From Escherichia coli (GTDB taxonomy: Bacteria; Pseudomonadota; Gammaproteobacteria; Enterobacterales; Enterobacteriaceae), in assembly GCF_003334785.1 (NCBI RefSeq), contig NZ_QOWV01000001.1: 64,000 nucleotides of DNA; one strand, given 5' to 3'. The translations under genes were made by a program, and so were the position numbers. Shown in pieces: positions 6,360 to 7,982 of this stretch. The notes under the pieces are model-generated. The model was not told the DNA's origin. It made no database searches and saw only the letters and a program-made list of their open reading frames with translations. How positions within the stretch are numbered: the stretch's first letter is position 1; each line of letters begins with the position of its first letter.

Positions 6360-7064
6360 ATGGACAGATTCCCACGTTCTGATTCAATCGTACAACCCCG
6401 GGCTGGCTTGCAAACTTATATGGCTCAAGTCTATGGCTGGATGACCGTTGGCTTGTTGCTGACCGCATTTGTTGCCTGGTATGCGGCTAATTCCGCGGCC
6501 GTGATGGAGCTGTTGTTCACTAACCGTGTCTTTTTAATCGGTCTGATCATCGCGCAATTAGCATTGGTTATTGTGTTATCAGCGATGATTCAAAAGCTGA
6601 GCGCAGGTGTAACGACGATGCTCTTTATGCTTTATTCGGCGCTGACGGGTCTTACGCTTTCCAGTATATTCATTGTCTATACCGCTGCTTCTATCGCCAG
6701 TACTTTCGTCGTTACTGCCGGGATGTTCGGCGCAATGAGCCTGTACGGTTACACCACGAAGCGCGATTTAAGTGGCTTTGGCAATATGCTGTTTATGGCG
6801 TTAATCGGCATTGTGCTGGCATCGCTGGTCAACTTCTGGTTGAAAAGCGAAGCATTGATGTGGGCAGTTACCTACATCGGCGTGATTGTCTTTGTCGGAT
6901 TGACGGCGTATGACACGCAGAAACTGAAAAATATGGGTGAGCAGATTGATACCCGCGACACGTCGAACCTGCGCAAATATTCCATTCTTGGCGCGTTAAC
7001 CTTGTATCTGGACTTCATCAACCTGTTCCTGATGTTGTTGCGGATCTTCGGCAACCGCCGTTAA
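6360..7064 (+). CDS. ybhL: YbhL, BAX inhibitor-1 (BI-1/YccA) family inner-membrane protein (234 aa)
   Basis: ORF 6360..7064; CAGGAGA RBS; multi-TM hydrophobic sequence. Confidence 0.92.
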   Translation: MDRFPRSDSIVQPRAGLQTYMAQVYGWMTVGLLLTAFVAWYAANSAAVMELLFTNRVFLIGLIIAQLALVIVLSAMIQKLSAGVTTMLFMLYSALTGLTLSSIFIVYTAASIASTFVVTAGMFGAMSLYGYTTKRDLSGFGNMLFMALIGIVLASLVNFWLKSEALMWAVTYIGVIVFVGLTAYDTQKLKNMGEQIDTRDTSNLRKYSILGALTLYLDFINLFLMLLRIFGNRR

Positions 7065-7082
7065 TTCTTTTTCACCATCACT

Positions 7083-7110
7083 ATCCCGGCCATGTGTCGG
7101 GATTTTTTTC
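7083..7110 (+). terminator. Rho-independent terminator after ybhL
   Basis: Hairpin atcccg-gccatgtgt-cgggat followed by a run of seven T. Confidence 0.7.
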
Positions 7111-7268
7111 TTACTAAAAACGACACTTAACAAGTACCAGGTATAAAATATGCCTTATGGACGAGCGGAAGCGTTTTCTGTATCCATAAATGCAAAAGTA
7201 TTTTGTATGCGTGGTTTTAAATTTATTGATGGTGAATATTAATATTTTTTCTAAGGATAACTAAAAGA

Positions 7269-7982
7269 ATGGAATCATACTCGCAAAACAGCAATAAATT
7301 AGATTTTCAGCACGAGGCCAGGATATTAAACGGTATATGGCTCATTACCGCTTTAGGTTTGGTGGCAACCGCAGGACTAGCCTGGGGAGCTAAGTATCTC
7401 GAAATTACGGCAACCAAATATGATTCACCACCAATGTATGTCGCCATAGGGTTATTATTACTTTGTATGTATGGCTTAAGTAAGGATATCAACAAGATAA
7501 ATGCCGCCATCGCGGGCGTAATATATCTGTTTTTACTCTCTTTGGTGGCGATTGTCGTTGCAAGTTTAGTTCCTGTATATGCCATTATCATCGTGTTCAG
7601 CACTGCGGGCGCGATGTTTTTAATCAGTATGCTGGCCGGTTTATTATTTAATGTTGATCCTGGTTCTCACCGTTTTATCATTATGATGACGTTGACAGGG
7701 TTGGCCCTGGTAATCATCGTGAATGCGGCATTAATGAGTGAACGGCCCATTTGGGTAATAAGTTGCTTAATGATTGTGTTATGGTCAGGCATTATCTCGC
7801 ATGGACGAAATAAGCTCCTTGAATTGGCGGGGAAATGCCATAGTGAAGAGTTGTGGAGTCCGGTTCGTTGCGCTTTTACAGGTGCATTAACACTCTATTA
7901 CTATTTTATCGGCTTCTTTGGGATACTTGCCGCGATAGCTATAACGCTTGTCTGGCAAAGGCATACGCGTTTTTTTCATTAG
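7269..7982 (+). CDS. ybhM: YbhM, BI-1-like inner-membrane protein (237 aa)
   Basis: ORF 7269..7982; multi-TM; visibly AT-rich relative to neighbours. Confidence 0.9.
   Translation: MESYSQNSNKLDFQHEARILNGIWLITALGLVATAGLAWGAKYLEITATKYDSPPMYVAIGLLLLCMYGLSKDINKINAAIAGVIYLFLLSLVAIVVASLVPVYAIIIVFSTAGAMFLISMLAGLLFNVDPGSHRFIIMMTLTGLALVIIVNAALMSERPIWVISCLMIVLWSGIISHGRNKLLELAGKCHSEELWSPVRCAFTGALTLYYYFIGFFGILAAIAITLVWQRHTRFFH

Follow-up and report, generated by a model that had tools for sequence, protein, structure and literature searches.

The ybhM gene of Escherichia coli as part of a polymorphic islet behind the ybhL terminator, with a divergent Bax inhibitor-1-type product and a plausible immunity-like role

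Why does Escherichia coli carry, directly downstream of ybhL, a second gene of the Bax inhibitor-1 (BI-1) family that differs so much from its neighbor, and what might that second gene do? The question is raised by a 64,000-nucleotide stretch of an E. coli genome (NCBI RefSeq assembly GCF_003334785.1, contig NZ_QOWV01000001.1; hereafter "the window"), in which ybhL and ybhM stand side by side. Both genes and their family assignment are already in the databases, long annotated with function unassigned, and the bare observation of the pair is not new. As judged by comparison of the junction across strains and species, ybhM represents, in K-12, a polymorphic AT-rich islet that was inserted behind the ancestral ybhL terminator, and its product belongs to a hyperdivergent clade of the BI-1 superfamily confined to Enterobacteriaceae. 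Taken as a whole, an account that joins this islet and this divergence to an immunity-like role of the protein seems to us more probable than not.

The window is a K-12-type segment with the gene order uvrB, yvcK, moaABCDE, ybhL, ybhM, followed on the opposite strand by ybhN, clsB and ybhP. The features on which the argument rests are the following:

7104-8017, no strand: islet in its K-12 version, ~0.9 kb, bounded by comparison with the empty ybhL/ybhN junction
7269-7982, plus strand: ybhM, 237 aa (open reading frame, ORF, and RefSeq annotation "Bax inhibitor-1/YccA family protein")
6360-7064, plus strand: ybhL, 234 aa (ORF and the same RefSeq annotation, "Bax inhibitor-1/YccA family protein")
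7083-7109, plus strand: ybhL terminator, a hairpin at 7083-7103 and a T-run (terminator scan, RNA fold, conservation)
7065-7268, no strand: AT-rich spacer from ybhL to ybhM, 204 bp, GC 0.328
7120-7147, plus strand: reported sigma-70 promoter of ybhM, ACGACA-16-TATAAA (promoter scan and PMC3946193)
8018-8974, minus strand: ybhN, convergent, right border of the hot spot (ORF and annotation)
6299-6327, plus strand: predicted sigma-70 promoter of ybhL, TGCACA-17-TATCCT (entry in PMC3946193, sequence located at these coordinates)

The history of the junction can be read from ybhL loci retrieved from 80 species genomes with YbhL as the query, 47 of which have the convergent ybhN downstream. In 38 of these 47 the stop codons of ybhL and ybhN lie at most 200 bp apart with nothing between them and no ybhM, in genera that include Citrobacter, Enterobacter, Lelliottia, Trabulsiella, Buttiauxella, Pantoea and Erwinia. 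An empty site also occurs within Escherichia (locus L006), where a K-12-type hairpin directly abuts the end of ybhN (GGGAT-TTAAACA-TCACATCG). The K-12 junction reads GGGAT-(insert)-TAAACT-TCACATCG, which places the ~0.9 kb of 7104-8017 between the hairpin and the TAAAC before the ybhN stop. Since the same hairpin stands at the empty Escherichia site, the terminator is ancestral, and ybhM and the spacer were inserted behind it; the ancestral state in Enterobacteriaceae and Erwiniaceae, as reconstructed from these loci, was ybhL and ybhN converging on a common terminator hairpin. The preliminary description of this DNA, made from the sequence alone, had suspected that ybhM arrived later, and both the empty species junctions and the empty Escherichia site bear this out.

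That description had also placed a rho-independent terminator and an AT-rich spacer of ~200 bp between the two genes, and both are present. The terminator scan finds the hairpin ATCCCGGCCATGTGTCGGGAT at 7083-7103 followed by TTTTTTCTT, and its RNA fold has an energy of -11.6 kcal/mol (z -2.2 vs. shuffles), which makes the element at 7083-7109 a credible intrinsic terminator of ybhL. The hairpin is kept among Escherichia (L002, L003, L006), with differences in the loop and at one stem position.

Within the species, a census of 5426 complete E. coli genomes (a gene being called intact at ≥80% coverage) found ybhL in 5425, ybhN in 5421 and ybhM in 4788 (88%), and the genomes in which the gene is less than 95% identical to K-12 number 1256 for ybhM, 182 for ybhL and 66 for ybhN. 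Between ybhL and ybhM, 749-793 of the 5426 genomes (~14%) carry an extra BI-1-like gene of 234-246 aa, here called g2, and the number of islet genes ranges from one to six across strains. The arrays include ybhL-g2-ybhM-DUF3969-73aa (L102), ybhL-g2-ybhM-g4-DUF3969-152aa-186aa (L103) and DUF3969-73aa with ybhM not annotated (L104), where g4 is a further gene of the YbhM-like set; a cryptic-clade Escherichia (L002) has g2-ybhM-g4-DUF3969-73aa, and Escherichia albertii NBRC 107761 (L007) has an EptA/CptA-like transferase, a ybhM fragment, g4 and DUF3969. The E. albertii transferase, a phosphoethanolamine transferase of 553 aa and GC 0.37 (L007:8063-9724), lies beside the ybhM fragment, which is 81 aa long. 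Insertion sequences (IS) contribute to the loss of ybhM: the spacer is a frequent target, with IS1 and IS200 there in other E. coli genomes, and ybhM was lost through an IS1 deletion in L096, is truncated in L097 with IS200 in the spacer, and is interrupted by IS1 in several E. coli genomes and by IS5 in strain RR1. No recognizable remnant of g2 was found in the K-12 spacer past the terminator, with no similarity to this gene beyond 7110. In the cryptic-clade strain, ybhL itself (L002:2642-3346) has a dS of 0.53 vs. K-12, with ~0.19-0.21 for moaE, ybhN and clsB; this excess over the flanking genes points to recombination that brought in a divergent ybhL allele along with the islet.

Other genera also hold YbhM-like genes at the same junction. 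Salmonella has one of 235 aa with two further membrane genes, and others occur in Kluyvera, a Pseudocitrobacter metagenome-assembled genome and Phytobacter; in Kosakonia several species carry full-length genes and Kosakonia cowanii (L039) a remnant, and an enterobacterium (L091) has an eight-gene array. In Salmonella, Kluyvera, Pseudocitrobacter, Phytobacter and Kosakonia the islet arose either independently of Escherichia or by exchange. The Kluyvera locus further differs in having eptA and a two-component system between yvcK and uvrB and in missing ybhN-clsB-ybhP. The stretch behind the ybhL terminator thus combines an insertion relative to a conserved empty site, a deviant composition and a patchy, polymorphic distribution, to which H-NS binding is added from the literature alone (PMC3946193). 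This polymorphic multi-gene context is not visible from the window sequence, from which the preliminary description was drawn.

The composition of the pair was calculated against a background of 51 non-overlapping window ORFs of at least 150 aa. With GC 0.426 and a GC content at third codon positions (GC3) of 0.454, ybhM is the second-lowest of these ORFs in GC3 (z -2.75) and has a GC z of -2.93, and ybhL, with GC 0.487 and GC3 0.617 (z +0.56), is typical; along the islet stretch GC drops to 0.36-0.44. The claim that ybhM is AT-rich and compositionally distinct therefore held up, equal composition not being found (GC3 0.454 vs. 0.617). GC1 and GC2 are near-identical between the two genes, so the contrast lies at synonymous sites. 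Two adjacent long ORFs elsewhere in the window, 59377-61803 and 61811-63139 (plus strand), have the lowest and third-lowest GC3 (0.446 and 0.497) at GC 0.41-0.43 and so form a further pair of deviant composition; they are probably the c-di-GMP genes yliE and yliF.

Two adjacent same-strand BI-1 genes of similar size had been reported in the preliminary description, and the ORFs, the RefSeq names and a Pfam Bax1-I (PF01027) match in both proteins agree with this. YbhL matches the model at 211.9 bits over positions 1-207 of 207, and YbhM at 74.8 bits (E 1.1e-20) over positions 3-205 of 207. Aligned directly, the two share 25% identity over 151 aa (E 1e-12), as distant paralogues do (22-25% across comparisons). 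A word-indexed homology search with YbhM retrieved Escherichia and Shigella only and was too narrow, so that a full HMMER scan of 1.84 billion protein representatives was needed to reach its more distant relatives. It returned 97 proteins at E ≤1e-3, and a profile search added members from Kluyvera and Kosakonia. Beyond Escherichia YbhM and fragments, the full-length relatives are 25-35% identical at best, and all named ones are Enterobacteriaceae. Two remote matches (P0098 and P0100) were considered as YbhM-like and set aside as ordinary BI-1 genes in unrelated contexts.

A neighbor-joining (NJ) tree gathers the YbhM-like proteins in a clade with long branches (88% bootstrap), and in it the enterobacterial YbhL group (100%) is nested among ordinary bacterial BI-1 proteins. 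Identity between YbhM-like subfamilies is 19-44%, and the clade carries its own signatures, namely W.iTA.GLw.TAG.aW in the first transmembrane helix (TM1), RC before GA.TLY, and a longer hydrophobic C-terminus. YbhM accordingly groups with its own clade rather than with enterobacterial YbhL, and the possibility of a recent tandem duplication, against which the preliminary description had wanted its proposal checked, finds no support: at 25% identity, with separate clades, a GC3 of 0.454 vs. 0.617 and mostly empty junctions, ybhM is, on these comparisons, not a recent tandem duplicate of ybhL. The clade could have originated either in an ancient ybhL-like duplication that spread by flanking homology or from a foreign donor.

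The long branches in the tree do leave room for an ancient ybhL duplication. In one version, ybhL would have been duplicated in situ and the copy would have diverged rapidly, YbhM would still be a TMBIM-type pH-sensitive cation leak channel, sub- or neo-functionalized, and the patchiness would reflect many independent losses. The two genes share Pfam family, strand and size, and YbhM-like genes stand directly 3' of ybhL in Escherichia, Salmonella, Kluyvera, Pseudocitrobacter, Phytobacter and Kosakonia, a constant adjacency that fits either a duplication or exchange through flanking homology; an acidic residue (E) also occurs near the TM6 Asp column in about half of the YbhM-like subfamilies, and g4 has the TM7 Asp. 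However, the tree does not place YbhM-like proteins and enterobacterial YbhL as sisters (a test limited by the long branches), the junction is empty in the 38 of 47 species with Erwiniaceae outgroups included, the cassette also occurs away from ybhL (in a guaA island and beside vgrG), the GC3 of ybhM lies 0.16 under that of ybhL, YbhM has G and Y at both Asp positions, and its predicted structure departs from canonical BI-1 models. We consider this explanation unlikely.

The Asp positions are those of the di-aspartyl pH sensor of the family, kept in all canonical BI-1 homologues, TM6 YD.QK and TM7 LYLDF (D171/D195 in Bacillus subtilis YetJ). YetJ (BsYetJ, PDB 4PGR), the prototype prokaryotic BI-1/TMBIM pH-sensitive Ca2+ leak channel, resembles both YbhL and YbhM in its full-length PF01027 match, its size of ~235 aa and its seven predicted helices. 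YbhL shares more with it, aligning to YetJ (4pgr) with both Asp motifs intact (YDTQK and LYLDF). At the YbhM positions stand G and Y, and in the other YbhM-like subfamilies the residue is E, K, N or R at TM6 and S, G, C, Y or N at TM7; the exceptions in the set are a TM7 Asp in g4 only and a TM6 Asp in P0085 only, so that YbhM-like proteins mostly lack at least the TM7 Asp.

An AlphaFold2 model of YbhM (mean predicted local distance difference test score, pLDDT, 86.9) has seven helices, at 4-43, 54-76, 79-100, 103-127, 134-154, 159-192 and 198-235. Searched with Foldseek against AFDB50, it reaches template modeling (TM) scores of 0.8-0.94 within the clade and ~0.5 to annotated BI-1 proteins; a search of the model against the PDB did not retrieve YetJ, which we do not take as refuting a YetJ fold. 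A few uncharacterized Sphingomonas and alphaproteobacterial proteins score 0.7-0.8 at 14-18% identity, above the annotated BI-1 proteins (~0.5). These model comparisons hint at a distinct helix packing in YbhM or at distant relatives beyond Enterobacteriaceae.

YccA is the best-studied E. coli BI-1 paralogue, a modulator of the protease FtsH, and it too lacks the TM7 Asp. YbhL and YccA share with YbhM the superfamily, an inner-membrane location and a similar size (ybhL being also adjacent and on the same strand), and YbhM could by analogy be a stress factor that binds FtsH/HflKC or the Sec translocon and modulates envelope-stress proteolysis, with no link to interbacterial toxins. The YccA precedent and its own missing TM7 Asp favor such a role, as does the induction of ybhM (ECs0865) in enterohaemorrhagic E. 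coli (EHEC) Sakai, 4.6- to 5.1-fold late in survival on lettuce leaves, alongside csgD, bssS and bhsA (PMC6891304). Unlike YccA, however, YbhM matches no NCBIfam model, the YccA model NF007765 included, and YbhL matches that model at 23 bits against a cut-off of 353; nor would a gene that is hypervariable and differs between strains, is bound by H-NS and is often struck by IS elements be expected to encode a housekeeping modulator of a conserved protease. We regard this role as decidedly unlikely.

How strongly YbhM is constrained was estimated from dN/dS (Nei-Gojobori) between K-12 and three other Escherichia loci. The ratio is 0.10, 0.28 and 0.64 for ybhM, 0 to 0.011 for ybhL and 0.015 to 0.06 for moaE, ybhN and clsB; for g2 and g4 it is 0.37 and 0.23. 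A raised ratio that stays below 1 corresponds to a relaxed but still present constraint, i.e., purifying selection, and the supposed divergence of ybhM was upheld both by this ratio, 5 to 30 times that of the neighboring genes, and by its separate clade in the NJ tree. The gene pair thus sets a core gene (ybhL, dN/dS about 0.01, host-typical GC3) against an accessory-like one (ybhM, dN/dS 0.1-0.64, low GC3). Variable sites among the Escherichia YbhM alleles fall in the N-terminal tail (residues 1-21) and in 128-154 (the loop 128-133 and helix 5), where ~80% of sites vary, and TM6, TM7 and the clade motif are conserved. The differences between K-12 and L003 lie mostly in the first 22 residues, and this concentration accounts for the ratio of 0.64 in that pair.

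These figures also bear on whether ybhM is just what is left of an islet acquired horizontally, a decaying and silenced gene without present function whose intactness in K-12 is incidental. The H-NS site (PMC3946193), the disruption, truncation or deletion of ybhM in ~12% of complete E. coli genomes and in the laboratory strain RR1, the dN/dS of up to 0.64 in one pair, the fragment in E. albertii NBRC 107761 and the remnant in Kosakonia cowanii would all suit such decay. Yet ybhM persists as a full-length ORF in 88% of genomes, and does so in E. coli, E. albertii, E. fergusonii and the cryptic clades alike, dN/dS is well below 1 in the more diverged pairs (0.10-0.28), and TM6, TM7 and the RC...GALTLY motif are conserved across subfamilies at 20-40% identity. 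A mere relic is, in our view, quite unlikely.

The promoter reported for ybhM lies within the islet. In a genomic SELEX (systematic evolution of ligands by exponential enrichment) study with RpoD holoenzyme, the spacer between ybhL and ybhM contains a site with the constitutive promoter ACGACA-16-TATAAA (Shimada et al., 2014, PMC3946193, Table 3), and the same source flags this spacer as having an H-NS site and lists the promoter TGCACA-17-TATCCT for the spacer between moaE and ybhL. The preliminary suggestion that ybhM has its own promoter agrees with this listing, the hexamers being found at 7120-7147; the promoter scan adds an alternative -10 element, TAAAAT, at 7144-7149.

What function such an islet might serve is suggested by the genes that accompany YbhM-like genes elsewhere. 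At the Salmonella ybhL junction, two polytopic membrane genes come after the YbhM-like gene, both with near end-to-end matches to the NCBIfam family "immunity protein Sip4" (E 3e-5 and 8e-8). A minority of Salmonella have a second, ~40% identical cassette in an island that lies downstream of guaA, again with Sip4 matches (E 3.5e-8 and 3e-4); in one of these genomes (L089) a TsiV-family immunity gene (E 1.8e-34) and an IS come before it. This guaA-side cassette (L088-L090:8001-9900) comprises a YbhM-like gene of 238 aa and the two Sip4-like genes, with a Sel1-repeat gene and DUF1266/DjlB-like genes on its flanks. Sip4 is an immunity protein of the inner membrane that counters Ssp4, a pore-forming effector of the Serratia marcescens type VI secretion system (T6SS) (PMC12669606); like YbhM it is polytopic and located in the inner membrane, and its remote relatives are fixed partners of the Salmonella YbhM-like gene at two loci, but it is not homologous to YbhM and no Sip4-like gene occurs in the K-12 window. 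The array of E. coli GF4-3 ends in a gene that matches the SUKH-4 immunity family (E 3.7e-5).

Superficieibacter electus has an empty junction (L025) and a YbhM-like gene elsewhere (L098), 260 bp upstream of a gene for an 864-aa protein that is followed by vgrG; the 864-aa protein (L098:9984-12578) has no relative in Pfam, NCBIfam or the PDB and is a candidate for a new T6SS-associated protein or effector. The junction of Enterobacter sp. BIGb0383 holds a four-gene minus-strand insertion (L034:7763-12553) that encodes a phospholipase D (PLD) and three Sel1/DUF6396 proteins. The PLD is eukaryotic-like and 610 aa long (PDB PLD1/PLD2/PLD-alpha matches at 1e-11 to 1e-16), and the Sel1/DUF6396 proteins, ~327 aa each, match PA5087 (5jkp) at 4e-39. 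A PLD effector paired with Sel1 immunity proteins is typical of T6SS modules (PMC7108748), and from its gene content the insertion looks like a T6SS effector of the Tle5/PLD1 type with tandem immunity genes. No defined effector partner of a YbhM-like homologue was found in the loci examined, and neither YbhM nor any other K-12 window protein matched an immunity family.

The closest known parallel is with orphan immunity islets of the T6SS or of contact-dependent inhibition (CDI), such as the yegQ islet of Salmonella Typhi (PMC7400221). Like these, the YbhM islets are low-GC, strain-variable arrays of small genes at a fixed junction without cognate toxins, with known immunity families at or near YbhM-like genes (Sip4-like, SUKH-4, TsiV) and, at one junction, a PLD and Sel1 module. 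Unlike them, they have as their main repeated component a seven-helix membrane protein of BI-1 type, a family not known to include immunity proteins, and K-12 keeps only that one gene.

K-12 keeps a minimal islet, made up of ybhM and a spacer with its own sigma-70 promoter and the reported H-NS site, and other E. coli strains carry two to six islet genes or have lost ybhM through IS elements. YbhM, we propose, is not a canonical pH-gated Ca2+/H+ leak. It would more likely be an accessory inner-membrane protein, normally silenced by H-NS, and would act as an orphan "immunity-like" protein that blocks membrane-inserting effectors of competing bacteria. We infer this role from the hot spot and from the YbhM-like genes that elsewhere travel with T6SS effector and immunity cargo, and on this circumstantial gene-neighborhood evidence it is plausible, if unproven, and the best available guess at a function, though taken alone it is less likely than not. 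In its most specific form, the proposal is that YbhM-like proteins might be a new BI-1-fold family of inner-membrane immunity or protective proteins, whose divergent arrays would persist at the ybhL/ybhN hot spot of Escherichia, Salmonella and their relatives in the role of orphan immunity genes and would neutralize membrane-inserting, pore-forming toxins of competitors (Ssp4/Ssp6-type T6SS effectors, CDI toxins, colicins). That form we put forward tentatively and consider less likely than not as it stands; each of the three other explanations discussed above is individually less likely than the immunity-like one.

Several observations weigh against an immunity function. Some concern the cargo: the Sip4 and SUKH-4 matches are far under the curated cut-offs (24-34 bits vs. 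240), and a homology between Sip4-like and YbhM-like proteins was considered and rejected (hhalign probability 0.5%). The hot spot also holds unrelated genes (catalase and Blc in Pluralibacter, the EptA-like transferase in E. albertii), so the co-location of YbhM-like and immunity genes may be incidental. Nor was a toxin gene paired with ybhM found in K-12 or in any Escherichia array examined, and scans of YbhM, g2, g4 and their neighbors with PADLOC and PHROGs gave no defense or phage assignment for the BI-1-like genes. A tblastn search of phage and plasmid collections with a central YbhM-like member turned up no copy on a phage, and its plasmid matches were misfiled chromosomal fragments. 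Other points concern the protein and its host: our literature search found no BI-1-family protein shown to be an immunity protein, dN/dS of ybhM is below 1 with variable sites not limited to exposed loops, and MG1655 is sensitive to periplasmic Ssp4 (PMC12669606). Still others concern the origin of the gene. YbhM-like genes next to ybhL in at least six genera also fit an old in-situ duplication, the Phytobacter copy has a GC of 0.60, and the low GC3 of ybhM may partly reflect weak selection or AT-biased drift in a weakly expressed, silenced gene; as weak selection on a silenced gene would lower GC3 too, a low GC3 is no proof of foreign origin.

A few observations on the surrounding DNA stand apart from this argument. 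ORFs of 98 aa within ybhM (7307-7603, minus strand) and 60 aa within ybhL (6872-7054, minus strand) lie antisense to the two genes, and nothing supports their status as genes; a published antisense gene, asa, that overlaps a "TEGT transporter" was dropped from consideration, as it concerns yccA and not ybhL or ybhM. An Rfam scan of 6100-8100 found no RNA family. RefSeq annotates a molybdenum-cofactor riboswitch at ~3388-3532 (plus strand), upstream of moaA and overlapping its start (coordinates transferred from L001 with a 301-bp offset).

The islet, its polymorphism, the clade-wide loss of the two Asp residues and the T6SS immunity-type cargo appear to be undescribed, no paper on them having been found in our literature search. 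For E. coli biology, ybhM marks a recombination and insertion hot spot whose contents vary by strain and genus, and whose signature is a BI-1-derived protein without the ion-sensing residues, repeatedly alongside interbacterial-competition cargo. If the immunity-like reading is wrong, the locus would still be a clean case of an H-NS-covered islet at a convergent terminator. If it is true, a y-gene would gain a function, and the set of immunity proteins that act on pore-forming toxins would gain a new fold. YbhM would then be a bacterial counterpart of eukaryotic BI-1, which antagonizes the colicin-like pore former Bax, and would connect, in evolutionary terms, the "pore-former inhibitor" roles that the BI-1 family plays in bacteria and in eukaryotes.

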